A DNA stretch of 64,000 bases, from positions 6,758-70,757 of the forward strand of contig JAZOQY010000032.1 in NCBI GenBank assembly GCA_045656285.1, given 5' to 3'. The translations under genes were made by a program, and so were the position numbers. The first letter of the stretch is position 1; every line of letters begins with the position of its first letter. This document shows positions 933 through 44,149 of the stretch, in pieces. The DNA comes from Kiritimatiellia bacterium. Its GTDB lineage: Bacteria; Verrucomicrobiota; Kiritimatiellia; RFP12; UBA1067. The notes under the pieces are model-generated. The model was not told the DNA's origin. It ran no database searches and worked only from the letters and a program-made list of their open reading frames with translations.

Positions 933-3461
933 ATGGATAATTTAATCGACAGTGATGTTATGAATTTAAAGAAAATTTGTTTTTTGACATTGGCGCTCTT
1001 CGCAATAACTTCCGATGGAGCCGATATAACTCGTGTTTATCGTCCGGCGCGTTATTCACGCGGCAATACCAATCTTATTCCCGTTCAGCATGTCGATGAC
1101 GCTTCCTGGATATGGGCGACCACGAACAGGCCGGTTATGCATCAGTTTGATGACTGGAGCACTTATACGATGGCAGAAGGTTCCAGTGATGTTGAGTTTT
1201 TAAAGTTTCGTAAGGAATTCGACGTTAAAGAAGGTGAAGGCGAGCTTATTTTCGATGTGTCGGGCGATGAGAGGTTTTATCTGACTTTAGACGGCGTGTT
1301 CGTAGCGCGAGGGCCGAATCGCAGTCCTGTCGAGAACTGGCAGTATCAGACGTATTCGGTTAAAAACCTTAAGCCCGGCCGACATGTTTTCGAGGCGGTA
1401 GTCTGGAAGGTCGGAATCCATTCGCCTATGGCTCAGGTTTCTCATCGCGGCGGTTTTGTTTTTAGCGCCGAGGGAGTATACGACGCAAAACTTACTACCG
1501 GTAAAACCACGTGGCAAGTCGCTGAGATTGACAATGTAAAGGCATTGAAAATTCCAAATGAAGCGTGGGAGGTCGGCGGACAGTTTGAGGTGAAAGGGCG
1601 CGGACCTTATGCCGTTGAGCCTAAGGCGTGGCGCGACGCGGTCGTAGTGCGCAATCATGCGGGCATGAAGGGGCGCGGCATTTGCGGTGTAAGAACGGTG
1701 GGCTGGATGCTCTTCCCGACGCAGCTCCCCGATCAGACCGAAGAGCGCATTTCGGTCGGTACCGTTAGAGCCGTTGCGCGAAATGTGGAATGGAGATCGC
1801 GCCATACGTACAGTGAAGAGGATTGCCGTGATCCGCTTGTCGGCAAAATAAATGACTTTCTTAAAAATGGCGGTAAGCTCGTAATTCCGGCGAATACGCG
1901 ATTTCAGGCTGCCGTTGATTTGGGCGTTTATAAGTGCGCGTATCCGATTTTAAAAATGAAGGGTGCTAAGGGCGCGCGCGTTTCGTGGACTTGGGTAGAG
2001 TCGGCGATTGACGCTAAGACGAAGCGAAAAGCCAACCGTAATGAAATTATCGGTAAGTATTTGCGCGGCTATGGTGATGATTTTGTTTCAGATGGAGCTA
2101 TAGGAGAGTTTTCCACTCCCTGGTTCAGATGCGGAAGATGGTGCAGGATCGATGTCGAAACTCTTGATGAGCCATTGGAGATTTCGGAGATGTATCTTAT
2201 TTCGAGCCGTTATCCTCTTGAGATGGAGTCTGCTTTTACGGCGACGCCCGACGCATCGTTCGGCGAAATCCGCGAGATTTGCGCGCGCGCTATGCAAATG
2301 TGCGCACATGAAACTCTTTTTGACTGTCCTTATTACGAGCAGCTAATGTATGCCGGAGACACCCGCGTTCAGCTTCTCGTTTTAGCGGCCATGTCCAACG
2401 ATGAGAGACTCATTAAGCGCGCGATAGAGTGTTACGATCTAGCTTCGCGCGATGACGGTACAGTTCCGATGAGTTGGCCTCAGCGCGGAATCCAGGAGTC
2501 GTTTACATATACGCTCGCCTATCTGCTTATGTACGGCGATTATGTAATGAACGGTACCGATCGTCAGTGGCTTAAGGCGCGTTTGCCCGGATTCAGAAAG
2601 ACGATGTCGGGTGTAGAATATTATGAGAATAACGAAGGGCTTTTGGAGGATGTGCCCGGGTGGCCGTTCATGGATTGGCCGGTAGGGTGGTATGCGGGCA
2701 TGGCGCCCGGGAGTTTCGTAGGAGACGGCGTAAATGCCGAGATAAATCTCTTTTGGCTTCTCGCGCTTGAGTCGGCGGTAAAAGTCGAGAAGGCGTTAGG
2801 TAATGACGATATTGCTGAGCATTGGGCTAAGAAGGCTGCGAAACTAAAGTCGAAGATTTTCGAAAAGTTCTGGTGCGTTGAGAGAGGACTCCTTTCCGAT
2901 ACGCCACAGATGAAGCATTTCTCGGAGCACGCCCAGGCGCTTGGCATTATTTCGGGCGTTCTCGAAGGTAAGAATGCGGAACTTGCGCTGAAGCATCTTT
3001 TGGAGGATAAGGATTTGGCGCGTTGCACAGTCTACTTTTCGTATTATCTTTTTGAAGCGTTTTTCAAGATGGATAGGGGGGACTTATTCCTGAATCGTCT
3101 TGATCTCTGGCGTGATTACCTAAAGCTGGGCGTAACCACGCTTTTGGAGCGCCCTGAAAATGAAAAGATTCAAGCGCGAAGCGATTGTCATGCATGGGGC
3201 GCCCATCCGATCTGGTTTATGCAGACGGGACTTGCAGGAATCAAGAGTGACGGAGAGTTCTTTTCCCGAGTGCTGATAAAACCATCGCCTGGAAGCCTTA
3301 AGCGGATCAAGGCGTCGCATCCTCACCCAAAGGGTATGATAACCGTAGAGCTCGAGTTTTTGGGAGATGGCGTTTCTGGGTATGTTGATACGCCGGTTGA
3401 AGGATGTTTTAAATACAAAAATACGACATTAATCCTTAAGGCCGGAATTAACAGGTTTTAA
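933..3461 (+). CDS. Alpha-L-rhamnosidase-like six-hairpin glycoside hydrolase (GH78-related)
   Basis: 842-aa ORF. FDCPYYEQLMYAGDTRVQ is typical of the bacterial rhamnosidase (alpha/alpha)6 domain. A signal-peptide-like MNLKKICFLTLALFAITS starts at the internal Met at 960, which is an alternative start. Confidence 0.75.
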   Translation: MDNLIDSDVMNLKKICFLTLALFAITSDGADITRVYRPARYSRGNTNLIPVQHVDDASWIWATTNRPVMHQFDDWSTYTMAEGSSDVEFLKFRKEFDVKEGEGELIFDVSGDERFYLTLDGVFVARGPNRSPVENWQYQTYSVKNLKPGRHVFEAVVWKVGIHSPMAQVSHRGGFVFSAEGVYDAKLTTGKTTWQVAEIDNVKALKIPNEAWEVGGQFEVKGRGPYAVEPKAWRDAVVVRNHAGMKGRGICGVRTVGWMLFPTQLPDQTEERISVGTVRAVARNVEWRSRHTYSEEDCRDPLVGKINDFLKNGGKLVIPANTRFQAAVDLGVYKCAYPILKMKGAKGARVSWTWVESAIDAKTKRKANRNEIIGKYLRGYGDDFVSDGAIGEFSTPWFRCGRWCRIDVETLDEPLEISEMYLISSRYPLEMESAFTATPDASFGEIREICARAMQMCAHETLFDCPYYEQLMYAGDTRVQLLVLAAMSNDERLIKRAIECYDLASRDDGTVPMSWPQRGIQESFTYTLAYLLMYGDYVMNGTDRQWLKARLPGFRKTMSGVEYYENNEGLLEDVPGWPFMDWPVGWYAGMAPGSFVGDGVNAEINLFWLLALESAVKVEKALGNDDIAEHWAKKAAKLKSKIFEKFWCVERGLLSDTPQMKHFSEHAQALGIISGVLEGKNAELALKHLLEDKDLARCTVYFSYYLFEAFFKMDRGDLFLNRLDLWRDYLKLGVTTLLERPENEKIQARSDCHAWGAHPIWFMQTGLAGIKSDGEFFSRVLIKPSPGSLKRIKASHPHPKGMITVELEFLGDGVSGYVDTPVEGCFKYKNTTLILKAGINRF

Positions 3462-3512: not shown

Positions 3513-4916
3513 ATGGATACAGCAATAGCTATAGTGGGTATGAGTTGCCGTTTCGCCGGCTGCAGTACGCCCCAGGCGTACTGGGACGCGATCATGGCCA
3601 GACGCAGCATGCTTACGGTGCCGGGCGCCGACGCGGAGCTGCCCCATGGCCAGCGGGGCATATTCGGCAGGCCATACCCCGTCAGGCTCGGACAGCTTGG
3701 CGATCTGTATTCGTGCGTTCCTTCCATGCAGAACTTCCCTCGTCAGGTGAACGCCGGCGAGAACCAGGACCTTTATTTTGCGACCCAGCTTGCGTTCGAC
3801 GCCCTGACCGACGCGTCGATCCGCCTTCATTCGCGCGAGCCTATCCGCGGCACGGTGCGTCTCGGTTATGCGCCGCCTTTCAATGCGTCGACGATCAACT
3901 GGCTGCAGCATACGTACTTTCTCGACCAGACGATGGACATCATCCGGCGGTTCATGCCCAATGCGCCGCTTGAATCGCTCGAGTCGATGAGATCCAAGCT
4001 CAAGGAGTCGCTTCCCGAGCCGAATGCCGCGTCTTTCCTCCTTGGCTCCGGCTACCGCTTTGTTTCGTGGATCGCTCGCGAATGTTCGTTCTCCGGCGCC
4101 GCTACGATCCTCGACGCCGGCATCCTGAGCGGCGGCGCGGCGTTGATGGAGGCTGTCGACGATCTGAGGCTCGGCCATGCCGACGTCGCGCTCGCGGGCG
4201 CAATAACCCCTCCGATGAGCCGCGCCTATCTTGAAGGGCTTTCGGGGGAGGTTCGCTTCTCGACACGGCAGGAGCTGCATCCGTTCGAGCAGGACGGCGA
4301 CGGCACGATACCCGGCGAAGGCGGGGCGATGTTCGTTCTGAAGCGCCGTGAAGACGCGCTCAAGGCGCGCAACAGAATCTACGCTCTCATAAAATCCGTT
4401 TCTGTCGGCCACAATCCGGAAGACGATCCGTCCCGGATCCTTTCGGATGCGATCGACAAGGCGGGGGCGACGGTCCCGTCGATCGGGCTTGTCGAGGCCG
4501 ACGGCTCGGGAATAAAGGAAATGGAGAGCCGCGAGATCGAGGCGATCCAGCGCCTCTGGGGCGAACACCGCCCGGGCGGACCTCTCGTCGGCGTCGGCTC
4601 CGTGAAGGGCAACATCGGACATACCATGAGATCTTCGATGTCGGCCGGTGTTGTGAAGGCGGCGCTCGCCCTGCGTTACAGGGTGCTTCCGCCGCAGGTC
4701 ACGCCCGACCATCCGTCCGATGCGATCGCGAATCTCGGTTCGAGCGCGTATCTGCTTACCGAGCCGCGTCCGTGGATAACGGGCGACAGCTCCAACCCGC
4801 GCCGCGCGGCTGTTCTGGCGTCGAACTTCATTCCCAGCAATCCCATCGGCGTTGCGAGCCGCGAAGGGCGCAGTGCGGCGATCATCCTTGAAGAAGAGCC
4901 GGAGGACAGGATATGA
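3513..4916 (+). CDS. Beta-ketoacyl synthase-like protein (type I PKS/PUFA-synthase KS fold) with the active-site Cys apparently replaced
   Basis: N-terminal IAIVGMSCRF and C-terminal GSVKGNIGHT are KS landmarks. The expected DTACSSS reads LDAGILSGG, and EAHGTGT reads VEADGSG. RBS gaggaaa lies before the ATG. The stop overlaps the next start (ATGA). Confidence 0.75.
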   Translation: MDTAIAIVGMSCRFAGCSTPQAYWDAIMARRSMLTVPGADAELPHGQRGIFGRPYPVRLGQLGDLYSCVPSMQNFPRQVNAGENQDLYFATQLAFDALTDASIRLHSREPIRGTVRLGYAPPFNASTINWLQHTYFLDQTMDIIRRFMPNAPLESLESMRSKLKESLPEPNAASFLLGSGYRFVSWIARECSFSGAATILDAGILSGGAALMEAVDDLRLGHADVALAGAITPPMSRAYLEGLSGEVRFSTRQELHPFEQDGDGTIPGEGGAMFVLKRREDALKARNRIYALIKSVSVGHNPEDDPSRILSDAIDKAGATVPSIGLVEADGSGIKEMESREIEAIQRLWGEHRPGGPLVGVGSVKGNIGHTMRSSMSAGVVKAALALRYRVLPPQVTPDHPSDAIANLGSSAYLLTEPRPWITGDSSNPRRAAVLASNFIPSNPIGVASREGRSAAIILEEEPEDRI

Positions 4917-7900
4917 CGGCTGATTTTTCGATCATCGGCGGCTCGGAGCTCGTCATCATTTCGGCCGAGAACGACGCGAAACTCGTCGAGGAGATTTCGC
5001 GCCTCATAACGTTCATCGACAGGATCCCCGACTGTTCGCTCGTCAATGTCGCCTACACCTGCAGCCTCATGCGCGGCGAGAGCGTTCTTGCGCTCGTCGC
5101 TTCGTCCGTCCAGGATCTGCGCGACCGCCTTTCGTCGGCGAAGAACCGGCTCGAGTCCGGAACGGTGACGCGCCTCAAGGACAAGAGCGGAACATATTAT
5201 TTCCGCGATCATCTCCTTGGAGAGGGAAAGGGCAAGCTCGCCTTTGTGTTCCCCGGCGCTATCTCGTTCTATCCCGACATGCTTCGCGATCTTGTCGTCC
5301 TTCATCCCGAATGCCGCGCGCCGTTCGACGAGCTTGAAGAGGCGCTTGTCGGTGAACCCGGCTTTACTCCTTCGAATTTCATCTTTCCGCCCGCGCCGTA
5401 TTACAGGCACGATGCCGACATCTTCAGTTCCGGCGCGTACTCCCAGGCGCTTGTCGCGACCTATGCCGGATGCGCGGCGATGTCGCGCCTTCTCGATGAG
5501 GCGGGACTCAAGCCGGACGGCATCGTCGGATGCGGCGGCGGTGATCTCGCCGCTGTCATGAAGTCCGGGGCCGCCTCCGCCGCCGCATCGCGCACGGAGC
5601 GCGTCAAGGCTCTTCGCGACATCTACAAGATCGTCAGCAAGGCCGTCGACAACAAGGGACTGCCGAAGATCGTGATGGTTACGGCGATGGTGCGCCACGA
5701 GGAGGATCTTGATGCGGTCCTCTCGTCGTTCCCGAAAAAGAAGGTTTATCTCGTCTGCGATTTTTCGCCCAAGATGAAGACTCTCGCGATCGAGCCTGAT
5801 TTCGAGGAAACGGCGATGAAGGCGTTCGCGAATGCGGGAATAAGGATTTTGAGGCTCGAGCTCGACAAGCCGTTCAACACGCCGGACTGCTCGCCGATCG
5901 TCCCCGCGATCAAGAAGTTCGCGACGGACTACATGAAGCACAAGAGCGTCTGCGAGGTCTATTCGTGCGCCATCGCCGACAGGCTGCCCGAGAGCCCGCG
6001 CGCCGCGCGAAAGGATACGGCGGAGCGCTGGGCGAAGCCGGTCCTTTTCGCCCAGACGATCCGCAAGATGCACGAGGACGGCTACAGGGTGTTCGTCGAA
6101 GTCGGGCCGCGCGGCATCATGACGGGCGCCGTCGAAGAGACTCTCTCCGGACGCCAGTTCGCCGCGGTTGCGATGAATTCGATCCATCGCCGTTCGCTTC
6201 TTCAGGTGCAGCATGCGCTCGCGCAGCTCGCCGCCTTGGGCGCGGGGATCGACATATCGGGCTTCTTCGTCCGCCGTCGCGCCAAAAAGCTCGATTTCGA
6301 CGCGACGCTTTCGATGGAGTTCAGAACCGTCATCGAACGCAGGCTTTCGCGCTCCTTCCCCAAGATGACGTTTCTCGGCGAGCCTGTCGCGACGGGGCTG
6401 GCGTATACGGGCGAGCCTAAGGCGCGCGGTTCGCGCGCGGCGGAGCGCGCCGCAGCCAAGGCGGCCCGCGAAAGCTCGCGCCTCCAGTTCGCCGCAGGAA
6501 CGAGCGATCCGCTTATTTCCGACGCGCCGCCGACGGAGTCGATCCCTGGCGTCTCTTACGAGTTCACGAAGCTCTTCAGGATTTCCGACGCGCCGTTCAT
6601 TGCCGATTTCGCCTACGGCGTCAGCCAGCTTTCGTATTCCGATCCGAATCTTCGCGGTCTTGTGCTCTTGCCTATTCCGCTCGCCGTCGAGATCATGGCC
6701 GAGACGGCGCAGCGTGTCGTTCCGAATCGCGTTCTCGTGAGGATCGAAGATTTCATCTGCCGCCGCCGCGTCGCCTTCTCGAAGGGCGAGCTCAAGCTTA
6801 CGGTCAAGGCCGAGCGCGTCTCGCCCGCCGATCCGTCGACCGCCGCGGTAAAGGTCCAGATACGCGACGATACGCCCGATGCGCAATTTACGTGGCCCTT
6901 GATGGAGGCCAACTTCATCATGGCCGCCGAACGTCTCGAGCCGACGAGCGCCCAGGTCGAGCAGCTCGCCCATCCGCGAAGCGTCCACTGGTCCGGGCGC
7001 GACATCTATCCGTCGAAGCTCGGCTTCGGAAGCCGCCTGAGAGGAATCGTGTTCGCCGAGAGCTGGGCCGAAAGCGGCATCAACTACGAAGTCGAGGTTC
7101 CTTCCTCGTCGGGGAGCGTGACGTTTACCTTGATGCCGTCGTGGACGGTGAATCCGCTTCTGCTTCAGATCGTGACGAGCGGCTTCATGCTGTGGCGTTG
7201 CCACGAGAAGTTCACGGGCGCGTTCTCCTTCCCGTTCCGCTTCAGGCGTCTCGAGCTGAAGGGGCCGGGGCTCAAGGAGGGCTCGCGCCTCAACTGCTAT
7301 CTGCGCCTCACGGGTGTCACGCCGCGTTCGCACCTTTGCGACATAACCGTAACGGGCGGCAACGGCAACGTCGTCATGGAGATCGACGGCTGGGAGGAGA
7401 TTACCGAGCGTGTGCCGAAGAACTTCTGCGATATGGTTCTTCAGCCCGCGACGAGCTTCATTTCGGAGTGCGTGCCCGCCGAGGTTTTCGGGGATCCGGG
7501 AACGGATGTCGCGTCGGCGGTGATAACCGATGTGCCTTACGCGATGTTCGAGCGCAACGAGGAGCTGTGGCTCAAGATCCTGAGCAACGTCGTTCTCAAC
7601 GCTCCCGAAAGGCGGGAGGCCGCGAAGATGAAGGGCTCTGTCGCGCGTCGCACCGAATGGCTCTTCGGGCGCATCGCGGTCAAGGAGGCCGTGAGGCGCT
7701 ATCTCAAGAATTTCCATCAGGCGCGCTGGAGCTACGCCGATGTCCAGATTTGGCCCAACGAGAACGGCAAGCCTCAGGCGATCGGCGCGTGGGGCGACAA
7801 TCTCACGTCGAAGATCGATGTCGCCATCGCCCACACGTCGCAGTTCGTAATCGCGCTTGCGGCCGCCAACGCCAAGATCGGCGTGGACGTCGAGTCCATC

Positions 7901-8242
7901 TCTCGCAACCTTTCCGAAGAGTTCACGCACGGCGTATTCTCTCCCGAGGAGCTGGAGCTCGCGACGAAGGCCGCCAACGCCTCTCAGGCGATCATCCGCT
8001 TCTGGTGCGCCAAGGAGGCGGTCTCGAAGGCTCTCGGAACGGGCATCCGCTATTCGCCCAAGGAAATGGTGATTACGGACTACCTGCCCGATTCCGGCAA
8101 CATCACGATGCGCCTCACCGGCGCGTGGGTCGATGTGTTCAAGAATTTCACAGGCCGCGACATTCCCGTCTCGACGCGCGTCGTCAAAGATCATGCGCTC
8201 GCGTTTTCGTTCATTCCCGCTTCGCTCTTCAATGAAAATTGA
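4913..8242 (+). CDS. Multidomain PKS-like protein: KS-AT linker, acyltransferase-like region, dehydratase-like region and a C-terminal Sfp-type 4'-phosphopantetheinyl transferase
   Basis: LAFVFPGAISFYPDML and GIVGCGGGDLAA align by eye to the AT motifs FPGQGSQ and GHSxGE. A hotdog-like stretch reads FIADFAYG...LLPIPLAVEIM. The C-terminus has PPTase motifs AIAHTSQFV, KIGVDVESI and FWCAKEAVSKALG. Confidence 0.7.
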   Translation: MTADFSIIGGSELVIISAENDAKLVEEISRLITFIDRIPDCSLVNVAYTCSLMRGESVLALVASSVQDLRDRLSSAKNRLESGTVTRLKDKSGTYYFRDHLLGEGKGKLAFVFPGAISFYPDMLRDLVVLHPECRAPFDELEEALVGEPGFTPSNFIFPPAPYYRHDADIFSSGAYSQALVATYAGCAAMSRLLDEAGLKPDGIVGCGGGDLAAVMKSGAASAAASRTERVKALRDIYKIVSKAVDNKGLPKIVMVTAMVRHEEDLDAVLSSFPKKKVYLVCDFSPKMKTLAIEPDFEETAMKAFANAGIRILRLELDKPFNTPDCSPIVPAIKKFATDYMKHKSVCEVYSCAIADRLPESPRAARKDTAERWAKPVLFAQTIRKMHEDGYRVFVEVGPRGIMTGAVEETLSGRQFAAVAMNSIHRRSLLQVQHALAQLAALGAGIDISGFFVRRRAKKLDFDATLSMEFRTVIERRLSRSFPKMTFLGEPVATGLAYTGEPKARGSRAAERAAAKAARESSRLQFAAGTSDPLISDAPPTESIPGVSYEFTKLFRISDAPFIADFAYGVSQLSYSDPNLRGLVLLPIPLAVEIMAETAQRVVPNRVLVRIEDFICRRRVAFSKGELKLTVKAERVSPADPSTAAVKVQIRDDTPDAQFTWPLMEANFIMAAERLEPTSAQVEQLAHPRSVHWSGRDIYPSKLGFGSRLRGIVFAESWAESGINYEVEVPSSSGSVTFTLMPSWTVNPLLLQIVTSGFMLWRCHEKFTGAFSFPFRFRRLELKGPGLKEGSRLNCYLRLTGVTPRSHLCDITVTGGNGNVVMEIDGWEEITERVPKNFCDMVLQPATSFISECVPAEVFGDPGTDVASAVITDVPYAMFERNEELWLKILSNVVLNAPERREAAKMKGSVARRTEWLFGRIAVKEAVRRYLKNFHQARWSYADVQIWPNENGKPQAIGAWGDNLTSKIDVAIAHTSQFVIALAAANAKIGVDVESISRNLSEEFTHGVFSPEELELATKAANASQAIIRFWCAKEAVSKALGTGIRYSPKEMVITDYLPDSGNITMRLTGAWVDVFKNFTGRDIPVSTRVVKDHALAFSFIPASLFNEN

Positions 8243-9110
8243 TTTTCCAGAATACGCCTGCGATTATTCAAAGCGCCTTGCATCTGTTTCTCCCGCATTC
8301 GCAAAACAGGTATACGATCCGAAGCCGTCCCGCCGCAAGTCGGATGACGATGACGGGGCGTACGGCATAGATCCGTTCGGCGAGCTTGCCGGGGCGTCGA
8401 AATGCTTCGGGCTCAAGCAGCGCTTCAGGGATCGCGTTCTTGTGATGACGTCCGACAGGTGCTTCATGAACTGCAGGCACTGCACGCGGCGCGGGCTTTT
8501 GGGCAAGGCGCAGGTCGTCCGGACGAAGGCTGAACTTGACGCTTGCGTCGATTATGTGAAGGCGAGGCCGGAGGTGCGGGATGTCCTTCTCTCCGGCGGC
8601 GATATCCTCACATTGAGCGACAGGGAGATAATGCGTTTTGTCGATGCGTTCGCCGCGCTCGACCAGATCGACATCGTCCGCGTGTGCACCCGCGCGTTGT
8701 GCACGAATCCGATGCGCGTTACGGACGGGCTCGCGAAGGCTCTCGCCAGATCGGGCAAGGTCTGGGTCAACACCCAGTTCAACTGCGCCGATGAACTTAC
8801 CTCAGAGGCGCGTGAAGCGGCGGCGAAGCTTGTCAACAGAGGCATTCCCGTTTCGTGCCAGAGCGTTCTTCTCAAAGGCGTCAACGATTCGGCGCCGAAG
8901 ATGATAAAGCTCCTGAAGGCGCTTTCGGCGGCGCGCATCCGCCCTTATTACGTTTTCATGTGCGACCCGGTCGCCGGGATCGGTCGCTTTCGCGTTCCGG
9001 TCGAAAAGGCGAGAGAGATCGAGCGCCGCGCTGCGGAGGCGCTCGGAGGCTTGAGCCTGCCGCGCTTTGTCGCCGACATCCCGGGCGCCAAACGCAAGAC
9101 GCCGATCTGA
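8232..9110 (+). CDS. KamA/EpmB-family radical SAM aminomutase-like protein (lysine 2,3-aminomutase family), short form
   Basis: CFMNCRHCTRR (CX3CX2C), LLSGGDILTL, QSVLLKGVNDS and RPYYVFMCDPV are present. I chose the internal ATG at 8232 (MKIDFPEY). It overlaps the upstream stop by 11 nt, whereas the ORF-track start at 8133 lies deep inside the upstream gene. Confidence 0.75.
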   Translation: MKIDFPEYACDYSKRLASVSPAFAKQVYDPKPSRRKSDDDDGAYGIDPFGELAGASKCFGLKQRFRDRVLVMTSDRCFMNCRHCTRRGLLGKAQVVRTKAELDACVDYVKARPEVRDVLLSGGDILTLSDREIMRFVDAFAALDQIDIVRVCTRALCTNPMRVTDGLAKALARSGKVWVNTQFNCADELTSEAREAAAKLVNRGIPVSCQSVLLKGVNDSAPKMIKLLKALSAARIRPYYVFMCDPVAGIGRFRVPVEKAREIERRAAEALGGLSLPRFVADIPGAKRKTPI

Positions 9111-9237: not shown

Positions 9238-9267
9238 TTGATTGAGATAGCGCGATTTTGCTATAAT
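9238..9267 (+). promoter_or_regulatory. Sigma70-like promoter of htpX
   Basis: TTGATT (9238-9243), 18-nt spacer, TATAAT (9262-9267). RBS agaggag lies before the ATG at 9299. Confidence 0.45.
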
Positions 9268-9298: not shown

Positions 9299-10177
9299 AT
9301 GAAAAGAGTTGCATTGTTTTTGCTGACGAATATCGCGATGATGATCACATTGACCATTGTTGCACACATAGCATGCGCATTGCTCGGCACCACCGTGGCT
9401 GATCTGATTGGCGACGAGTGGGCTCATTTGGCTATTTTCGCATTTGTGTTCGGCATGCTTGGCGCGACAATTTCGCTTTTGATTTCAAAGCCCATGGCGA
9501 AGTTCGCATGCGGGGCCGTGGTTATAGACGGAACAGAGGGTGAAGCCGAGCGCTGGCTTGTTGAAACCGTGGCCGATCTCGCACGTCGTGCAAACATAAA
9601 AATGCCAGAGGTGGCCATTTATGAAGGTGCGGCAAATGCTTTTGCCACAGGCGCATTCAAGAACAGCGCTCTTGTCGCCGTTTCGACCGATATCATGAGA
9701 CAGATGACAAAGGAAGAGCTGAGGGCCGTTCTTGGCCATGAGATCAGCCATGTCGCCAATGGCGATATGGTGACCCTCACGCTCGTGCAGGGCATTCTTA
9801 ACGCATTTGTCATCTTTTTCTCCCGCATGCTCGCGCGCGTCCTCTCTTCGAACGGCGAAAACCGCCGTTCTTCAGGCGGAATGTATTTCATGCTGGTCAT
9901 CGTCTTTGATATAGTTCTTGGAATATTGGCGTCGCTGGTCGTTTTTGCGTATTCCCGCCGCCGTGAATTTGCGGCCGATGCCGGATCTGCGCGTCTTTTG
10001 GGCTCGCCGTCGTCAATGATAGCCGCCTTGCAGCGTCTGGGCAATCTGCAGCCCGGCGTTCTGCCGGATTCCCTTAAGGCGATGGGAATCGCCGAAGGAA
10101 AGAAAACGTCTCTCTTTTCGACGCATCCGTCGCTTGACGACCGTATTGATGCGCTTCGCAATTTTCATCAGCAGTAA
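9299..10177 (+). CDS. htpX: Zinc metalloprotease HtpX (peptidase M48)
   Basis: N-terminal TM helices, an HEISHVANGDM zinc motif, and a typical length of 292 aa. Confidence 0.9.
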   Translation: MKRVALFLLTNIAMMITLTIVAHIACALLGTTVADLIGDEWAHLAIFAFVFGMLGATISLLISKPMAKFACGAVVIDGTEGEAERWLVETVADLARRANIKMPEVAIYEGAANAFATGAFKNSALVAVSTDIMRQMTKEELRAVLGHEISHVANGDMVTLTLVQGILNAFVIFFSRMLARVLSSNGENRRSSGGMYFMLVIVFDIVLGILASLVVFAYSRRREFAADAGSARLLGSPSSMIAALQRLGNLQPGVLPDSLKAMGIAEGKKTSLFSTHPSLDDRIDALRNFHQQ

Positions 10178-21494: not shown

Positions 21495-23183
21495 ATGACA
21501 TCTCTTGGAATATTCTTTTCCGTGCCTGTGCTGATCGTTGCCGCGGCCGCAGCGGTCCACGCAACGGCTTACGTTCATGGCGAGGCGCGTCGCCACCTGT
21601 TTCGCTTCTGGTGCTTTTTTGCGGCAACGGCAGTCTCGATGGTCGCCGTTGTCTATGCCGGAGGCAAGCTGCCGTTTCTTCTGGCGTGGGAGGCGATGGG
21701 GCTGGCTTCGGCCGGTCTTGTCGCGTTTGAATCGGGCGAGAAGAGTGTGCGCAAGGCGACGTGGATATACCTGCTCGCCTGCCATGCCGGAGCTTGTGCG
21801 CTGATGCTCGCCGGCGTATTTCTTGAGCGGCCTGATGCTATGATTGCGGCGTTTGCGTTTGCGGTTGTCGGTTTCGGGCTTAAAGCCGGATTTCCTCCGT
21901 TCCATGCCTGGCTTCCCGAGGCTCATCCCGCCGCACCCGCCCCGGCCTCCGCGATCATGTCGGGCGCTATGATTCCTTTGGGCTTTTACGGGCTTTTGAA
22001 GTTTTTCCCGATTTCGGAGCTTTCGTCATTCGACGCCCGGGTCTGCGGATGGACGCTTCTCTTGCTTGGTGCGGTCGGGGCTGTCGGCGGCATTCTCTTT
22101 GCGCTGCCGCAATCCAATCTCAAGCGGCTTTTGGCTTTCTCCTCCGTAGAGAACATGGGTGTCGTTTCCATGGGCCTCGGTCTTGGCGCTCTTTTGCATG
22201 CCCATGGCGATTTCAGGTCGCTTGCGCTTCTGTCAGGGGCAGGGGCGCTTGTCCATGTTCTCAACCATGCGTTTCTCAAAGGTTCCCTTTTTCTCGGCGC
22301 GGGTTCGGTCCTTCGCCAGACGGGCACTCTCGATCAGGATCGGCTCGGCGGTCTCATGAAGCGGATGCCTTTTACCGGTTCGCTTTTTGCGGTCAACGCA
22401 TTCGGTCTTGCCGGGCTCCCGCCGCTGAACGGATTCATGGGGGAGTTGGCGATTTACATCTCGGCGTTCTTCGCGATAAAGACCGGAGACCCGGTTCTTG
22501 CTTCGGCAGGGTTTTTCGCCGCTGTTTCGCTGGCGTTCACGGGCGGTCTTGCCGCGACAGCCTATGCAAAGGCGATCGGCGGAGTGTTTCTCGGCGAAAG
22601 CCGCAGCGAAGCGGCGGCAAATGCCGTCGAGACTCCGCGCCGCATGTGGCTCGCGCAGCTCTTTCTGACGCTATTGTCGTTAGCCATGATTCCAGGCAGC
22701 GTCTATCTGATCCATTTTCTGTCCGGCGGATGCAAGACGGAAGTCTTCATCATGGCGGCGGCAGTCGGATTGATTTTTGCCGTGCTGGTGGTTTCGCTGC
22801 TGCTTCTTCGCCGCTTCATCTGTCCGCGCGGCGGGATCCGGCCGCGTCTCCCCGTCTGGGACTGCGGCTACGACGCTCCGACGCCGCGTATGGCCTACAC
22901 CGCGACGGCGTTCACGCAACCGCTCGTCGATCTCTTCCGCCCGATCCTCAAATCGCGCCGCCACGTCAAGCATTTTGAGGGCGACCCGGCCGCGCCGTCC
23001 GATGCGGCGATAGCGACCGAGACATGCGACTTCGCGCTCGGCGGACTTTGGCGCCCCGTCTTCTCCGCCGTGGCCCGTCTTTTCCAGCGTGCGCATCTTT
23101 TGCAGAACGGCTCGTTGCATCTTTACATCCTGATAATCCTTATGGCGGTCTTGGCGCTGCTCGTCGCCGCATTGGTCTCATGA
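21495..23183 (+). CDS. HyfB/NuoL-like proton-conducting membrane subunit
   Basis: A polytopic 562-aa protein with FGLKAGFPPFHAWLPEAHPAAPAPASAIMSG, the signature of the Mrp/NuoL/HyfB antiporter-like family. Confidence 0.8.
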   Translation: MTSLGIFFSVPVLIVAAAAAVHATAYVHGEARRHLFRFWCFFAATAVSMVAVVYAGGKLPFLLAWEAMGLASAGLVAFESGEKSVRKATWIYLLACHAGACALMLAGVFLERPDAMIAAFAFAVVGFGLKAGFPPFHAWLPEAHPAAPAPASAIMSGAMIPLGFYGLLKFFPISELSSFDARVCGWTLLLLGAVGAVGGILFALPQSNLKRLLAFSSVENMGVVSMGLGLGALLHAHGDFRSLALLSGAGALVHVLNHAFLKGSLFLGAGSVLRQTGTLDQDRLGGLMKRMPFTGSLFAVNAFGLAGLPPLNGFMGELAIYISAFFAIKTGDPVLASAGFFAAVSLAFTGGLAATAYAKAIGGVFLGESRSEAAANAVETPRRMWLAQLFLTLLSLAMIPGSVYLIHFLSGGCKTEVFIMAAAVGLIFAVLVVSLLLLRRFICPRGGIRPRLPVWDCGYDAPTPRMAYTATAFTQPLVDLFRPILKSRRHVKHFEGDPAAPSDAAIATETCDFALGGLWRPVFSAVARLFQRAHLLQNGSLHLYILIILMAVLALLVAALVS

Positions 23184-24079
23184 ATATTCTAAGTGTCATT
23201 CTTGCGGCTGTCCTTGCTCCGCTTTTCGTCGGCATCGTCAATCAGACGAAGGCCTTCTTCGGCGGCCGTCGCGGTCCTGGTCTTCTGCGTCTTTACAGGG
23301 ATCTATTCAAGCTTGTGCGGAAGTCTTGCCCCCGACCCGCGCCTTCCTCCTGGATATTCGACATCGCCCAAAGCGTTTCGCTCGCATCTGTCGTCGTGGC
23401 GGCTGCCGTTTTCCCGTGGTCGGGCTGCGGAATCGGATCGGCGGCGGTTCCGGCGGTTCTCTTTTTCTACATTCTTGCCGCAGGGAGGTTCTTTACCGTC
23501 GTCGGAGCTCTGGATGCGGGCAACGCTTTCGAGGGGATGGGCGCTTCTCGCGAGATGCAGTTCTCTGCGCTTGTCGAGCCTGTCGTGTTTGTCGTCCTGG
23601 GATTTCTCGTCATGCTCAACGGCGACGCCTCTCTCTCGAGCGTGCTTTCCGGCGTTTCGGCCGAGACGTGGCGCGAGAGCATTGTCGCGCTCGTTCTGGT
23701 GTTCGCCGCCTTCTACGCGGTGTTTCTCCTTGAGAATTGCCGTGTGCCGTTCGACGATCCCGAAACGCATCTTGAGCTTACGATGATTCATGAAGCGATG
23801 CTTCTTGACGTGGGCGGCGTCGATCTAGCCTTTGCGCTTTACGGCGCGGCGCTCAAGTTTGAGCTTCTCGCGGCGTTTCTCGTCACTATGTTCGTGCCGG
23901 TCCTGGAGAACCCCTATATCCATCTGGCGGTTGTCTTTGGCGGCGTCGCGCTCATGTCGCTGGCGACGGGAGTCGTCGAATCCATCATGGCTCGAATGAG
24001 GTTTTTCAAAACGCCCCAGATTCTTCTCGGGGCGCTGCTGATGGCTTCGCTTGCCGTTTTCTTCTTGGCGTGTTTCTGA
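23180..24079 (+). CDS. HycD/HyfC/NuoH-like membrane subunit
   Basis: MNILSVILAAVLAPLFVGIVNQTKAFFGGRRGPGLLRLYRDLFKLVRK matches the HycD/NuoH N-terminus. ATG 23180 overlaps the upstream stop (ATGA). The ORF-track start at 23024 lies inside hyfB. Confidence 0.8.
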   Translation: MNILSVILAAVLAPLFVGIVNQTKAFFGGRRGPGLLRLYRDLFKLVRKSCPRPAPSSWIFDIAQSVSLASVVVAAAVFPWSGCGIGSAAVPAVLFFYILAAGRFFTVVGALDAGNAFEGMGASREMQFSALVEPVVFVVLGFLVMLNGDASLSSVLSGVSAETWRESIVALVLVFAAFYAVFLLENCRVPFDDPETHLELTMIHEAMLLDVGGVDLAFALYGAALKFELLAAFLVTMFVPVLENPYIHLAVVFGGVALMSLATGVVESIMARMRFFKTPQILLGALLMASLAVFFLACF

Positions 24080-24101
24080 AGGACGAAGGGGGAGAAGAAA
24101 A

Positions 24102-24803
24102 ATGACAACGCTTTCCGAAATCGCTCTTGCGCTTTTTCTCACATCGAATCTCGTGCTTGCGGGCGCGAGCCGTCTGCGTTCGGCTGTCCGCTTCGTCGCG
24201 ATGCAAGGCGTGATTCTGGGCGCTCTTCCCGTGCTCATGTGGGACTGGCCGGTTGACGGCTGCCCCGGCGCCCGCATCTGGGCCGTCGCCGCCGTCAACA
24301 CGCTCGTCAAGGGCGTTCTGCTGCCGGCGCTTTTGCTTTACGCTGTCCGCAAGGCCCGCACCCGCCGCGAAGTCGAGCCGATAGTTCCGTTCCATCTCTC
24401 CCAGATCATCGTCTTTTTAATGGCCGTCGGCGCTTTTGTAGTCGGGCGGCTTCTCCGGGTTCACGTTTCGGGCGCGTCGGAGCTCGCCGTTCCGGTTGCG
24501 CTCACGACGATGGGAACGGGGCTTCTTCTTATCTGCGGCCGGAAGAAGGCGATCACCCAGGTGCTGGGCTTCCTCGTTCTCGAAAACGGCATTTCTGTCT
24601 TCGGCGCGGCGATCCTTCTAGAGTACGGCGTTGTCGTGGAGCTCGGAATCCTGCTCGATGTCTTTGCGCTCGTCTTCATCCTCGGGATTGCCGTGTTCCA
24701 GATAAGCCGGACGTTCTCCTCGACGGACACCGACAGATTGAATCATCTCGGCGACACTCATCTGATGCATCCTCATCATCACCACGATCACGTTCACGCT
24801 TGA
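24102..24803 (+). CDS. HyfE-like small membrane subunit (NuoK-related) with a His-rich C-terminal tail
   Basis: RBS gaagggggag lies before ATG 24102. The 233-aa protein has multiple TM helices and contains VLENGISVFG. The tail reads HLMHPHHHHDHVHA. Confidence 0.7.
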   Translation: MTTLSEIALALFLTSNLVLAGASRLRSAVRFVAMQGVILGALPVLMWDWPVDGCPGARIWAVAAVNTLVKGVLLPALLLYAVRKARTRREVEPIVPFHLSQIIVFLMAVGAFVVGRLLRVHVSGASELAVPVALTTMGTGLLLICGRKKAITQVLGFLVLENGISVFGAAILLEYGVVVELGILLDVFALVFILGIAVFQISRTFSSTDTDRLNHLGDTHLMHPHHHHDHVHA

Positions 24804-24804
24804 T

Positions 24805-25992
24805 ATGGAACACATTCTCAGGAATCTACTTCTTGTTCTGACGCCGGTTCTCTTTGCGGCGAATCTGGTGCAGAGCTTTTTCTATCTGCCGCAGTCGGCG
24901 CGGCACGGCGGCTCTCCGCACATGCCGGCAGCGCTTTACTATACATTCTTCGTGCTCTTTTTCGGTGCGATGATTTTCGCGTTGACGGCGGAGTCGTTGC
25001 CTATGATGTGGGTCGCGATCGAATTGACGACGCTCGTTTCGGCGCCGCTGATCGCCTATCACCGCAACCAGGACGGGCTTGAGGCGATGTGGAAATATCT
25101 TCTCATCTGTTCCATCGGCATCGCTTTCGCGCTCTTTGGCACGATGCTCGTGCTTCATTCCCGGGAGACCGGAAATCCGCGCTGGTTCATGGCCGGTTTT
25201 GCGTTTGTCCTGGCGGGCTACGGAACCAAGACGGGGCTTGCCCCGTTTCATTCGTGGCTGCCCGACGCCCACTCAGAGGCGCCGGCTCCTGTCTCCGCGC
25301 TTCTTTCGGGCGCGCTTCTGAACTGTTCGTTCTTCGCGATTGTGCGATTCCGTGAAATCGCGCCTGTCGAGGCCGTGCGTTTCTGCGACGGTTCGATGCT
25401 CGCTTTAGGTCTTCTTTCGGTTGCGGTGGGCGCTGTATTCATGGTTCGCCAAAACGACTTCAAGCGGCTTTTGGCGTATTCTTCGGTCGAGCATGTCGGT
25501 CTCATAACGATTCTCTATTCGCTTTGTGCCGGCTCATCCGACATGAAGAGCATGGTCGTCCTCGCGCTTTTGGCCCATATTGCAGTCCATTCGCTCACCA
25601 AAACGCTTCTTTTCCAGACCGCAGGAAACATTCTGCTGGCGTTCCGCACTCGTGCAGTGCCGGTGGTGCAGGGCCTCGCCGTTTCGATGAAGGGCCATGC
25701 CTTGCTCTGGCTGCTCGGCATCGTTTTCATCTGCGCAATGCCGCCGTCGGTATTGTTCTTTACGGAGTTGGCGCTCGTCTTCTCGGCGCCTGTCTGGGTG
25801 TCGATAACGGTGCTCCTGCTTCTTTTCGTCGTTTTCGCCGCGATGATGAAAATCGCGCTTTCGATGGTGATGGGCAAGCCTCTGGTCAAGTGCGAGAAGC
25901 TGCCCGCGAGACTTGTCGCCGTGCCGTGCACGCTTCTTGCGGCGCTGATTCTGCTCGGGGTCGCGTGCGCATGCATCGCGCTCGCGCGTTAA
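24805..25992 (+). CDS. HyfF/NuoN-like antiporter-type membrane subunit (short, 395 aa)
   Basis: GYGTKTGLAPFHSWLPDAHSEAPAPVSALLSG matches the antiporter-like subunit signature. It starts 1 nt after the hyfE-like stop. Confidence 0.75.
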   Translation: MEHILRNLLLVLTPVLFAANLVQSFFYLPQSARHGGSPHMPAALYYTFFVLFFGAMIFALTAESLPMMWVAIELTTLVSAPLIAYHRNQDGLEAMWKYLLICSIGIAFALFGTMLVLHSRETGNPRWFMAGFAFVLAGYGTKTGLAPFHSWLPDAHSEAPAPVSALLSGALLNCSFFAIVRFREIAPVEAVRFCDGSMLALGLLSVAVGAVFMVRQNDFKRLLAYSSVEHVGLITILYSLCAGSSDMKSMVVLALLAHIAVHSLTKTLLFQTAGNILLAFRTRAVPVVQGLAVSMKGHALLWLLGIVFICAMPPSVLFFTELALVFSAPVWVSITVLLLLFVVFAAMMKIALSMVMGKPLVKCEKLPARLVAVPCTLLAALILLGVACACIALAR

Positions 25993-36590: not shown

Positions 36591-36645
36591 AAATCTGTTC
36601 GTGGGCGAATATAAAACTTCATTTCGCGCATCACGAAAAATTTGC

Positions 36646-36774
36646 AATAGATATTTATGGATACTCTCGCGGGCGCCTGTGATCGACAGGAATGTCAGAA
36701 ATGTCATTCTGGCCGAAGCTAAACGCCGCGGATATGATACCGCTAAACTCATTTGGGTCGAACAATCGGAATAA
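36646..36774 (+). pseudogene. 3' remnant of a bacterial lipocalin (Blc) gene
   Basis: NRYLWILSRAPVIDRNVRNVILAEAKRRGYDTAKLIWVEQSE is colinear with the Blc C-terminus (DYLWILSRTP...SKFIWVQQ). No N-terminal two-thirds and no start codon are present. Confidence 0.6.
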
Positions 36775-36776
36775 CG

Positions 36777-36808
36777 TTACCCCCGCATTTTTAAAAATGC
36801 GGGGGTAA
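36777..36808. repeat. Perfect 32-nt palindrome (possible bidirectional terminator)
   Basis: ttacccccgcattttt|aaaaatgcgggggtaa, with 16 nt pairing perfectly to the next 16 nt. It starts 3 nt after the blc-remnant stop. Confidence 0.8.
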
Positions 36809-36959
36809 TATTCGGGCAGACATTTCGGGGCGTTTTTAGACCCGGCAGAAGTTGCCGGATACAGTTTTATTTCTCCTAAAAGTCGAGGTGTTTTAGGTTT
36901 CGCTTTTTCTCCTTGTAATGCCGTTTTTGCGCCTTTTTGTGCATAAAATCGAAGATATT

Positions 36960-36968
36960 TGGTATAAT
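36960..36968 (+). promoter_or_regulatory. Extended -10 element (TGgTATAAT) at the head of the island operon
   Basis: tttggtataat lies 23 nt upstream of the ATG at 36992. Confidence 0.4.
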
Positions 36969-36991
36969 ATTGTTCAGAAAACGAATGACAA

Positions 36992-38050
36992 ATGAGAACT
37001 AATACAACAGATGGCGTTCTTAAGCGCGATATACTGGAATGGCACGTTCCAGAGGAGGTCCTTGCGGTCTTGCTGAAAGACCGCTCGACGGGGCGCAATC
37101 TCATCTGGGCGACGGACGACTATACCGCGCGCGGCAAAGGCTTTGGCGTGAACGATGAGATACAGGTCGCGCAGATTGCGGACAGAGACCATCCCGTGAT
37201 TCGTCCTCGCGTGGACAAAAATGCGGAGGAACAACGGCAGCGCTCTGTCAAGCGCGCGGAAGTGTTCACGCCGTCATGGATATGCAACAAGCAGAACAAC
37301 CTTGTGGATGCCGCCTGGTTTGGATGGAAGAAACGCGATTCAAGTCCGTTCAATACCGAAATCGTCAAGTTTGATTCTGAAGCCGAATTCGGCTGGAAAT
37401 CAACTTGCGGCAAGCATATAAAATTCCCCAAAGGTAAGACCTGGCAGGAATATGTCAAGGCTCCGCGTCTGGAGGTGTCGTGCGGGGAGGCTCCGTATCT
37501 TGCAAGTAGATATGACACGGTAAGCGGCAGGATTATTCCCGTAGGCGAACGCATTGGGTTGCTGGATCGCAAGCTGCGCGTGATTACGGAGAATATCGGC
37601 ATGGGTGATATACAGGATTGGCTGTATTACGCCAAACGTGCGGTGCAAAGCATTTATGGCTTCGACTGGCAAGGCGACAATGTCCTTCTTGCGCGGGAGA
37701 ATGTGCTGTTTACGGTCGTTGAAAGCTTCAATGCGGATTTCTTCGGGGAGGAGAGTTCGGGGTTGAATTGGACGACGAAGTCATTGCTGGAGTTTGCCGA
37801 AATCATCAGCTGGAACATCTGGCAGATGGATGGAATCAAGTATGTCGTGCCGATGAGCTGTAAGCCGAAGGTGACGAAAGAAACGCTTCTTGACGGAACT
37901 GTTAAAACACATGTTGAAGAGTGTCCTGGTTGCAGTAAGAAAGGAAATCGTCAGCACTTTGGCACGTATTGCAAGGTCATGGATTGGAATACAGGCGAGC
38001 CGGTCGAATTCAGGGCGATTGCAGAAAACGGAGGTGGGCATGGCAAATAG
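36992..38050 (+). CDS. Hypothetical protein with methyltransferase-fold-like motifs but no (D/N)PPY; restriction-modification associated
   Basis: The 352-aa ORF leads the RM operon. AEVFTPSWICNKQNNLVD resembles gamma-class motif X, and RLEVSCGEAPYLASRYD resembles motif I. No NPPY or DPPY is present. A Cys pair (CPGCSKKG) lies near the C-terminus. Confidence 0.65.
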   Translation: MRTNTTDGVLKRDILEWHVPEEVLAVLLKDRSTGRNLIWATDDYTARGKGFGVNDEIQVAQIADRDHPVIRPRVDKNAEEQRQRSVKRAEVFTPSWICNKQNNLVDAAWFGWKKRDSSPFNTEIVKFDSEAEFGWKSTCGKHIKFPKGKTWQEYVKAPRLEVSCGEAPYLASRYDTVSGRIIPVGERIGLLDRKLRVITENIGMGDIQDWLYYAKRAVQSIYGFDWQGDNVLLARENVLFTVVESFNADFFGEESSGLNWTTKSLLEFAEIISWNIWQMDGIKYVVPMSCKPKVTKETLLDGTVKTHVEECPGCSKKGNRQHFGTYCKVMDWNTGEPVEFRAIAENGGGHGK

Positions 38051-39149: not shown

Positions 39150-39179
39150 GATTACTAAATCGGTGTAAAGGAACTGAAA

Positions 39180-42464: not shown

Positions 42465-43027
42465 TTGATATAAGTGTTATCAATGTTGACTCAATAGACC
42501 CTAGTGCGTATCCAGACAAAGAGTTTACGTATATTGACATTGACGCGGTTCAGAATGGTGAAGGAACGTTTGCGACCGATAAGAAGATTCTTGGTTCTAA
42601 CGCTCCGTCAAGAGCGCGCAGGATTGCAAGAAGCAACTCTACCCTTGTCTCTACTGTTCGCCCTAATCTGAAAGGCTTTGCTTATGTAGAGAATGAAATA
42701 AAGGATGCTGTGTATTCGACGGGTTTTGCAGTCTTAAAAAGCAAAGATACAGATGTTCTTCTAGACAAGATGATTTACTATATGTTCATGTATTCCAACG
42801 ACCTTATGGAGCAAATGATAGCCGCCATGCCGAAAGGATCCTATCCGTCAATCAATAAGGATGACATAGAGAACTTTATTATCCCAATCCCGCCTATTGA
42901 CGAACAGAAGAAAATTGTTGCAGAAGTTGTGAACTATGAATCCAAAATCACCAAGGCGAAAGCGGTCATGGATTCCGCACCAGCTCGCAAACAGGCTATA
43001 CTGCGAAAGTATGGAGTGATTGCATGA
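42461..43027 (+). CDS. Half-size HsdS-like specificity subunit (single target-recognition domain)
   Basis: 188 aa, with a TRD-like N-terminal part and a conserved C-terminal helix PIPPIDEQKKIVAEVVNYESKI. The start overlaps the upstream stop (ATGA). Confidence 0.75.
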   Translation: MIDISVINVDSIDPSAYPDKEFTYIDIDAVQNGEGTFATDKKILGSNAPSRARRIARSNSTLVSTVRPNLKGFAYVENEIKDAVYSTGFAVLKSKDTDVLLDKMIYYMFMYSNDLMEQMIAAMPKGSYPSINKDDIENFIIPIPPIDEQKKIVAEVVNYESKITKAKAVMDSAPARKQAILRKYGVIA

Positions 43028-43029
43028 TA

Positions 43030-43193
43030 AGTTCTTGGTATAGATTTGATACCGACTGGTCGCGTCCAATTCCTGAGATCGACGCGCAGCTATACGCGAA
43101 TACGGCCTCACCGAAGCCGAGCAGAAGTTCATCGAATCCATGATCAAGCCGATGGAGCCTAGCGGCGCTTTCCGCGGTAGTTTGAATTTCTAA
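43030..43193 (+). pseudogene. Frameshifted 3' remnant of another restriction/modification-type gene (C-terminal tail only)
   Basis: One frame reads SWYRFDTDWSRPIPEIDAQLY. The adjacent frame reads REYGLTEAEQKFIESMIKPME. This LYxxYGLTEEE..FIExxIKPM tail is one I associate with large RM/helicase enzymes. There is no start codon and a TGA at 43074. Confidence 0.45.
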
Positions 43194-44136: not shown

Positions 44137-44149
44137 GGAGGTTGAATGG

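Follow-up and report, generated by a model that had tools for sequence, protein, structure and literature searches.

A conserved synthase pair with degenerate ketosynthase, acyltransferase and dehydratase sites and an intact Sfp-type phosphopantetheinyl transferase domain in a Kiritimatiellia bacterium

Phosphopantetheinyl transferases (PPTases) of the Sfp type can be the sole PPTase of a cell and serve primary metabolism, as PcpS does in Pseudomonas, and a PPTase domain is embedded in the alpha subunit of fungal fatty acid synthase (FAS). Vestigial scaffold domains are also known in megasynthases, including the KS0 and AT-docking remnants of trans-acyltransferase (trans-AT) polyketide synthases (PKSs), the chain-length factor (CLF) and KSQ, and the pseudo-ketoreductase (pseudo-KR) and pseudo-methyltransferase (pseudo-ME) of animal FAS. 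Pfa-like "secondary lipid" synthases are type I FAS/PKS systems with a built-in or adjacent PPTase, such as the Type P ars system of Azotobacter and the pfaC-PPTase of Pseudoalteromonas (Shulse and Allen, 2011, PMC3098273). Here, a related locus is described in a 64,000-nucleotide stretch of a Kiritimatiellia bacterium genome (the window; assembly GCA_045656285.1, contig JAZOQY010000032.1, positions 6,758 to 70,757 of the forward strand), in which three consecutive open reading frames (ORFs) encode a protein of ketosynthase (KS) fold (ORF A), a protein with AT, dehydratase (DH) and PPTase domains (ORF B), and a KamA-family radical S-adenosylmethionine (SAM) aminomutase (ORF C; Table 1). Judged from alignments and phylogeny, the A/B pair is a degenerate branch of a family of live synthases built as KS, AT, acyl carrier protein (ACP), DH and PPTase, and the PPTase is by its residues the sole surviving catalytic site of the pair. 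It appears reasonably probable that A/B are a fossil synthase whose present work is that of a PPTase acting in trans, probably in a housekeeping role, with a link to KamA of co-expression. The ingredients are known, i.e., PPTases within megasynthases, vestigial PKS/FAS domains, Sfp-type enzymes in primary metabolism, and KamA/EpmB enzymes; no description was found of a conserved megasynthase with only its PPTase alive, nor of panB/KamA operons, and a search of the literature on the KS-AT-DH-PPTase architecture, on fusions of pseudo-KS with PPTase, and on PPTases of Kiritimatiellae and Lentisphaerae returned nothing relevant.

An exhaustive profile search (774 representative clusters at E ≤ 1e-30) places ORF B in a large family of proteins of 1100-1900 amino acids (aa) built as AT-[ACP]-DH-PPTase, to which a KS is either fused or supplied by a separate gene. 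Live members carry the AT motifs FPGEGSQ, GHSxGE and YHTP, the DH histidine and aspartate (in DH..G and DxxxQ), and a live KS, and have no KR in this chain. In the long live forms, AT and DH are separated by a PP-binding domain, and one of these forms (L018) adjoins a 2810-aa protein composed of enoylreductase (ER), KS, AT and KR domains; the short split live forms are followed directly by a stand-alone ACP of ~100 aa. Two split live clusters (L107 and L108) comprise, in order, two short-chain dehydrogenases/reductases (SDRs), KS, AT-DH-PPTase, ACP, and a phosphodiesterase. The stand-alone ACPs (L107:3911-4210, L108:8272-8583, and L018:15946-16248) are invisible to Pfam, and where DSL would be expected they have the unusual attachment motifs DLDFQSTD or DLEFESTD, with GFESLD in L018.

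For ORF A, ORF B, and their live relatives alike the best curated model is PfaA (TIGR02813), and the family, which bears no established name, is for this reason grouped among the "secondary lipid" synthases of Pfa-like type (PMC3098273), although the scores lie far below the cut-off of 1010 (129 bits for ORF A and 79 bits for ORF B) and do not make either protein a member of that model. The A/B pair and the Pfa-like synthases share the order KS-AT-(ACP)-DH-PPTase, which is reportedly also that of ArsD, and a P0-like PPTase motif (WLKILS as compared with hRxhLS). By contrast, Pfa-like synthases have tandem ACPs and partner synthase genes, and A/B have neither, nor a live KS, AT or DH. The enediyne synthase PKSE (KS-AT-ACP-KR-DH-PPTase) is set apart by layout rather than by sequence comparison with PKSE, since A/B are without KR or ACP, leave 85 residues between AT and DH, and have dead sites. 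The live split relatives in L107 and L108 share with A/B both the division into a KS and an AT-DH-PPTase protein and the length of the latter, ~1100 aa; however, they keep every one of the live motifs given above together with the downstream ACP, and the clade of the window keeps none. PcpS-like and fungal FAS PPTases are either free proteins of ~240 aa or parts of an active host, whereas the host in ORF B is catalytically extinct, and the known vestigial domains sit in working assembly lines, whereas A/B have lost the activity of all their synthase domains as well as the carrier.

In a neighbour-joining (NJ) tree of the family, which carries no support values, all members without the DH histidine fall into one clade, which occurs in Kiritimatiellae, Lentisphaeraceae, and relatives and has the live split forms as its sister group. 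The losses are nested within this clade: the DH histidine in all members, then the AT serine, then the AT histidine. The DH aspartate is lost in the subclade of the window and separately in the branch of the P0253 group, which keeps the AT histidine. The KS partners differ in their extent of loss at the Cys-His-His positions, which read C-H-H in L024, keep the cysteine in L019, read A/G/T/S-H-H in the subclade linked to PanB, and I/M/L/V/N-D-H in the clade of the window. The locus L024 (1702-6446) represents an intermediate stage of decay, in which the KS has DAACASS, EAHGTG and GHC with its Cys-His-His intact, and the ORF B homologue, which reads GPGIGE at the AT motif, is already without the AT serine and without either DH residue. 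A reading of the A/B/C locus made from the sequence alone (the sequence-only reading) was right that this is not a standard PKS or polyunsaturated fatty acid (PUFA) synthase, but the large live family behind the pair had not been visible to it.

ORF A corresponds to the KS of the ancestral KS-AT chain, now encoded by a gene of its own. It matches the N- and C-terminal ketoacyl synthase families of Pfam (PF00109, E 3e-23; PF02801, E 2e-17) and KS structures of PKSs in the PDB (phmmer, best E 7e-33). The assignment of the fold rests on these sequence matches, the AlphaFold model having a pLDDT of 38.5 from an alignment of 25 sequences, all at least 70% identical. Profile and PDB alignments uphold the register in which the KS landmarks had been read by eye: the nucleophile motif DTACSS is replaced by LDAGILSG, with Ile204 in place of the cysteine, and EAHGTGT by VEADGSG, with Asp330 in place of the first catalytic histidine. 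ORF A still has the second catalytic histidine (H370) and Lys365. Among 121 orthologues, the cysteine site is I, M, L, V or N, the first histidine site is Asp in 121 of 121, and the second is His in 121 of 121. ORF A consequently has a KS fold and is without the Cys-His-His triad of a condensing KS.

The N-terminus of ORF B is a KS-AT linker, as the sequence-only reading had it, residues 13-76 being matched in Pfam by both CurL-like_PKS_C and RhiE-like_linker. In the AT domain that follows, alignments to solved PKS structures confirm that FPGQGSQ has become FPGAISF and GHSxG has become GCGGG (His to Cys207, Ser to Gly208), and PDB alignments place Asn322 at the catalytic histidine, such that the fold is kept and both the GHSxG serine and the histidine are missing. 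Among the orthologues, the serine site is A, V or G and the histidine site is Asn in all 121; Cys207 is present in 88 and replaced by F, L or V in relatives, and Arg235 is retained in 95. The DH domain, of which the PS-DH score of 22.7 bits falls slightly below the Pfam cut-off, lacks the residues of a PKS dehydratase. The HxxxG histidine, already reported missing, is Phe566, and the DxxxQ aspartate is Gln752, a loss that had not been noted before; all 125 live family representatives carry both residues, and the orthologues have F, A, S or Y at the first site and G, Q, E or H at the second. The AlphaFold model of ORF B (alignment of 58 sequences) is confidently folded in all four domains, with a mean pLDDT of 87.5. 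Superposition of a predicted structure on PKS folds, suggested in the earlier reading and run for ORF B, gave the corresponding matches in Foldseek: residues 1-460 superpose on PKS AT domains with a TM score of ~0.8 and a root-mean-square deviation of ~4 Å, and the entire chain aligns to KS-AT-DH megasynthases.

The C-terminal domain of ORF B scores 60 bits with Pfam ACPS (residues 989-1075) and 60.6 bits with TIGR00556 against a cut-off of 45.35, and it has the full series of Sfp-type motifs, i.e., WLKILS, GKP, IAHT, GVDVE, and FWCAKEAVSK. K953, H974, D992 (120 of 121), E994, K1034, and E1035 show no or almost no variation among the orthologues. Its PDB matches include the PPTase of fungal FAS alpha (4v58, E 5.5e-4; 9d47 and 6u5v, E ~7e-3). 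No PP-binding domain was matched by Pfam in ORFs A, B or C, and in the ORF B model the stretch at 453-540, which lies where live relatives have their ACP, consists of a disordered segment (469-508) and one helix (506-527), not a carrier-like bundle. Furthermore, tblastn with AcpP and with the stand-alone ACPs of the family found no match in the window, and none of the dead-clade loci has a homologue of those ACPs. Both the intact Sfp-type PPTase and the absence of a carrier domain from the three proteins, as first seen in the sequence, are thereby substantiated, as is the conclusion that A/B do not function as a PKS or PUFA synthase.

The loss of every KS, AT and DH catalytic residue, together with that of the ACP, might be taken to favour pseudogenes, functionless remnants of a lost PKS cluster. 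This is practically certain to be wrong. ORF B has 574 relatives at E ≤ 1e-5. The best 120 match over their full length with identities of 60% or more, and those with a name come from metagenome-assembled genomes (MAGs) of Kiritimatiellae from ruminant and other guts; full length is maintained in orthologues at 35-98% identity, and hundreds of metagenome contigs have uninterrupted reading frames. The ratio dN/dS was obtained with the orthologous loci L002 and L007 only, those with L012 and L005 having been set aside, partly for saturation, and against L002, at a dS of ~0.4-0.6, it is 0.055 for ORF A, 0.053, 0.029, 0.021, and 0.007 for the linker, AT, DH, and PPTase of ORF B, and 0.076 for ORF C. 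The values of 0.02-0.06 at a dS of ~0.5 refute functionlessness already at the level of selection, and the modelled folds are confident: the catalytic losses in A/B are not decay, and the whole body of ~1570 residues is under strong purifying selection. An antisense ORF of 1172 aa (4676-8194, − strand) shadows ORF B and exceeds it in length; the evidence from homology, selection, and structure favours ORF B on the + strand throughout, and none of it favours the antisense frame.

Taken together, the low dN/dS, the wandering residues at former catalytic sites, and the invariant PPTase residues suggest that the folds are kept for structure around one live enzyme. A different explanation, also raised in the sequence-only reading, is that A/B form a diverged but working module, whose KS-, AT- and DH-like domains process the beta-amino acid made by ORF C on a carrier encoded elsewhere. 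KamA-type mutases do supply beta-amino-acid starters in polyketide pathways, KS Asp330 and AT Asn322 are fixed in clade 1, and AT Cys207 is common, all of which would suit such a module. The nucleophile sites, however, are hydrophobic or small and vary among orthologues, Cys207 itself giving way to F, L or V, and have not been fixed anew; the AT and DH catalytic dyads are both lost; genes for ACP, KR, thioesterase (TE) or adenylation are absent from the window and from more than 40 related loci; and most subclades have KS and ORF B without KamA. The idea of a working module has accordingly become very unlikely.

ORF C matches Radical_SAM in Pfam and exceeds the cut-off of the KamA family model TIGR00238 (208 bits against 199), in agreement with its recognition as a KamA-type radical SAM enzyme from the sequence. 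Its identity is 40% with the core of clostridial lysine 2,3-aminomutase (LAM; 2A5H, E 8.5e-55) and 32% with Escherichia coli EpmB. The CxxxCxxC cysteines C77, C81, and C84, R86, D245, D282, and the pyridoxal phosphate (PLP) lysine K289 correspond to C125, C129, C132, R134, D293, D330, and K337 of LAM and are invariant among 121 orthologues. In the LAM structure, Asp293 and Asp330 hold the epsilon-amino group of lysine. Because all of these LAM equivalents are invariant, the substrate is likely of lysine type and the product beta-lysine, and an alanine or glutamate mutase is unlikely; ORF C is likely a 2,3-aminomutase that is catalytically complete, has a pocket of the lysine type, and should make beta-lysine. 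Its scores in the equivalog models are below cut-off for AblA (231 against 525), EpmB (174 against 369), the glutamate mutase (207 against 650), and the arginine mutase (182 against 600). Compared with clostridial LAM, the chain is ~48 residues shorter at the N-terminus, which is also shorter than that of EpmB, comes to its end three residues past the PLP lysine, similarly to EpmB, whose chain stops right after it, and lacks the C-terminal Zn domain, with the Zn ligand Cys268 replaced by Ser. With ~290 aa, it is among the smallest complete members of the KamA family.

Two identities were considered for ORF C and not adopted. An alanine 2,3-aminomutase feeding beta-alanine to pantothenate, brought to mind by the panB gene of related loci, was rejected as the main reading, given the invariance of both lysine-binding aspartates; engineered alanine mutases described in patents reportedly required a change at the equivalent of Asp330. 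Against a typical EpmB stand the low identity, the score below cut-off, and the glutamate that E. coli EpmB has where ORF C and LAM have Asp282/330. No epmA, efp, ablB or lysine-fermentation genes are adjacent to ORF C. The Verrucomicrobiota, which in GTDB include the Kiritimatiellae, have been reported to have elongation factor P (EF-P) of the EpmAB type (PMC11388002), and from this parallel, beta-lysylation of EF-P is a plausible ordinary role and one candidate use of the ORF C product.

The neighbourhood was surveyed by tblastn in 106 loci. On the + strand of the window, the stop codon of ORF A and the start of ORF B coincide in ATGA and ORFs B and C share 11 nt, exactly as first described, and the ORF boundaries are likewise correct. 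The order KS, ORF B, KamA occurs in 21 of ~26 close loci, at 53-98% ORF B identity and all of the Kiritimatiellae type of the window; in the other five, at 58-71%, the downstream sequence is present and contains no KamA. No common alternative downstream partner was found in the loci without KamA. Further away, a subclade at 48-52% identity (L013 and L035-L038) has ORF B without adjacent KS or KamA; examples lie at L013:7899-11324, L035:3022-6363, and L038:5036-8368, and in L035 and L038, a protein of ~630 aa without Pfam match precedes ORF B. At 35-47% identity, in a subclade including the Lentisphaeraceae MAG L015, KamA is never adjacent. In no other subclade does KamA stand by ORF B; KS with ORF B but without KamA in the other subclades and in five of the ~26 close loci, and panB in the sister subclade, indicate a lineage-specific operon arrangement that is not obligate. 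The remark that the trio was not recognisable as a described pathway has held, as neither a curated family model nor a described pathway was matched.

These loci bear on the possibility that the three proteins form one physical machine, in which the dead megasynthase is the structural partner of a minimal aminomutase, stripped of the oligomerisation and Zn domains that clostridial LAM has at its two ends, and beta-lysine is used on or by the complex. The 11-nt overlap and the recurrence of KamA after ORF B in 21 loci, down to ~53% ORF B identity, accord with such a machine, as does the absence from ORF C of ~48 N-terminal residues, the C-terminal domain, and the Zn ligand Cys268 of LAM, and it would give a reason for the high constraint on the non-catalytic domains. 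KamA is nevertheless absent beside ORF B in the five close loci and in every other subclade, E. coli EpmB likewise stops just behind its PLP lysine and yet acts alone, and A/B offer no residues fit for handling an amino acid. A joint machine is thus unlikely, and ORF C may still associate physically with A/B.

In 10 distinct loci of the sister subclade at 35-47% identity, panB precedes KS and ORF B with gaps or overlaps of ≤12 nt, and the PanB of this operon clears the equivalog cut-off of TIGR00222; in L015, the contig begins at the KS, and the gene upstream is thus off the contig. Further neighbours in this subclade are TsaD, PFK, ribosomal proteins, and SmpB. None of the surveyed loci resembles a biosynthetic gene cluster, the neighbours being carbohydrate-active enzymes (CAZymes) and housekeeping genes. 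In L019 (14889-20561), an ORF of more than 2935 aa without Pfam family lies 4 kb downstream of the panB, KS and ORF B genes. PanB leads to ketopantoate, and hence to pantothenate, coenzyme A (CoA), and phosphopantetheine, and its linkage speaks for the PPTase as the active portion of ORF B. The same operon could instead reflect a regulatory role, in which the dead body senses acyl-ACP, malonyl-CoA or CoA in pantothenate/CoA homeostasis and the PPTase is a CoA-binding module. Strong constraint on all domains and the retention of the second KS histidine and lysine and of AT Arg235 (95/121) suit a sensor of this kind. However, all catalytic PPTase residues are invariant, the Mg-binding Asp/Glu and the Lys-Glu pair included, and not the CoA-binding ones alone, and Pfam finds no DNA-binding or signalling domain, which makes a non-PPTase role distinctly improbable.

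The reading favoured here, of a fossil synthase with a trans-acting PPTase, would run as follows. The ancestor would have been a Pfa/Ars-like iterative type I FAS/PKS of the order KS-AT-ACP-DH-PPTase that primed its own ACP. In a lineage of the Planctomycetota-Verrucomicrobiota-Chlamydiota (PVC) group, comprising Kiritimatiellae, Lentisphaeraceae, and relatives, the ACP would have been lost and the catalytic residues of DH, AT, and KS replaced in nested fashion. The PPTase of A/B would now move phosphopantetheine from CoA to free-standing carriers, most likely the AcpP of type II FAS, and the dead KS-AT-DH body would be retained as a structural or docking chassis that the PPTase needs. Coupling of ORF C to ORF B, confined to the subclade of gut Kiritimatiellae, would bring two housekeeping functions into co-expression rather than into shared-substrate chemistry. 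The pseudoenzyme scaffold around a PPTase that the sequence-only reading had proposed fits the dead sites, purifying selection, invariant PPTase, loss of ACP, and housekeeping neighbours. A wider version, in which the whole PVC lineage relies for essential holo-ACP synthesis on a PPTase inseparable from a dead megasynthase, with ~1300 non-catalytic residues serving solely as chassis or carrier-docking surface, and in which this chassis has also recruited a pared-down LAM in gut Kiritimatiellae, is a tentative and rather doubtful extension.

Several observations weigh against this reading. The activity and substrate of the PPTase are inferred from motifs alone. The ~1300 non-catalytic residues at a dN/dS of ~0.03 are not accounted for, and a further function is possible; the exchanges of the first KS histidine for Asp and of the AT histidine for Asn, fixed in 121 of 121 sequences of clade 1, would also fit a new specific role. 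The conserved translational coupling of ORFs B and C in the 21 loci is without mechanistic explanation, and the subclade at 48-52% identity has ORF B with neither KS nor KamA beside it. With regard to EF-P, ORF C is nearer to LAM than to E. coli EpmB and below the EpmB equivalog cut-off, with neither epmA nor efp nearby.

Beyond the M48 peptidase gene on the ORF C side, Pfam identifies Tex and then an epimerase gene. A promoter and terminator scan returned a single feature, a sigma-70-like promoter candidate in front of the M48 gene (9238-9267), and an operon end at 9110 agrees with it, which is weak evidence. The remainder of the 64-kb window consists of CAZymes, housekeeping genes, and one probable defence island; genes for a carrier protein, AcpS or EF-P are absent from it, as are pan genes and any other gene of PKS/FAS type. 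The island (36600-48250; Table 1) has low GC (0.41-0.49 against ~0.57) with strong GC skew and is probably a defence island. At 21495-25992, Mrp/Nuo-type antiporter-like membrane subunits stand in series, with two Proton_antipo_M proteins and ORFs without assignment, and the AT skew is very negative (-0.33 to -0.37).

Table 1. Positions, in window coordinates, of the three ORFs, the domains of ORF B, and other genes referred to in the text.
Feature	Position	Strand	Evidence or location
ORF A: KS-fold protein, 467 aa	3513..4916	+	Pfam, PDB phmmer, orthologue alignment
ORF B: KS-AT linker, AT, DH, PPTase, 1109 aa	4913..8242	+	Pfam, AlphaFold model, alignments
KS-AT linker, B residues 1-105	4913..5227	+	Pfam CurL-like_PKS_C and RhiE-like_linker at 13-76; pLDDT >90
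AT fold, inactive site, B residues 106-460	5228..6292	+	Acyl_transf_1 37.7 bits (111-413), PDB alignments, Foldseek
Post-AT linker, B residues 461-545	6293..6547	+	AlphaFold model; ACP position in live relatives
Double-hotdog DH fold, B residues 546-870	6548..7522	+	PS-DH 22.7 bits (703-826), pLDDT ~90
Sfp-type PPTase, B residues 871-1109 and stop	7523..8242	+	Pfam ACPS, TIGR00556, motifs
ORF C: minimal KamA-family radical SAM/PLP aminomutase, 292 aa	8232..9110	+	TIGR00238, 2A5H alignment
Rhamnosidase-like glycoside hydrolase	933-3461		Flanks ORF A side
M48 peptidase	9299-10177		Flanks ORF C side
YhcG/DUF1016 PDDEXK nuclease	37890-39149		Island 36600-48250
N6-methylase/Eco57I/specificity-domain fusion, 1094 aa	39180-42464		Island 36600-48250
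Second specificity subunit	42461-43027		Island 36600-48250
NucS_C-like protein	43207-44136		Island 36600-48250
1016-aa protein with reverse-transcriptase domain	45163-48213		Island 36600-48250

These proteins are labelled at NCBI as "PPTase superfamily protein", "polyketide synthase" or "hypothetical", and the "polyketide synthase" label, which genome-mining tools give as well, is a false biosynthetic signal on these genes of gut and rumen Kiritimatiellae and their kin. The family provides a natural staged series of megasynthase domain death, with live sister forms for comparison. If the PPTase is indeed a housekeeping enzyme, the A/B pair would be a clear case of an enzyme of primary metabolism trapped in a pseudoenzyme scaffold, and the conserved panB link would be a new neighbourhood marker for the supply of CoA and holo-ACP in the PVC group. 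Were the lineage furthermore dependent on this embedded PPTase, the arrangement would amount to an evolutionary ratchet.

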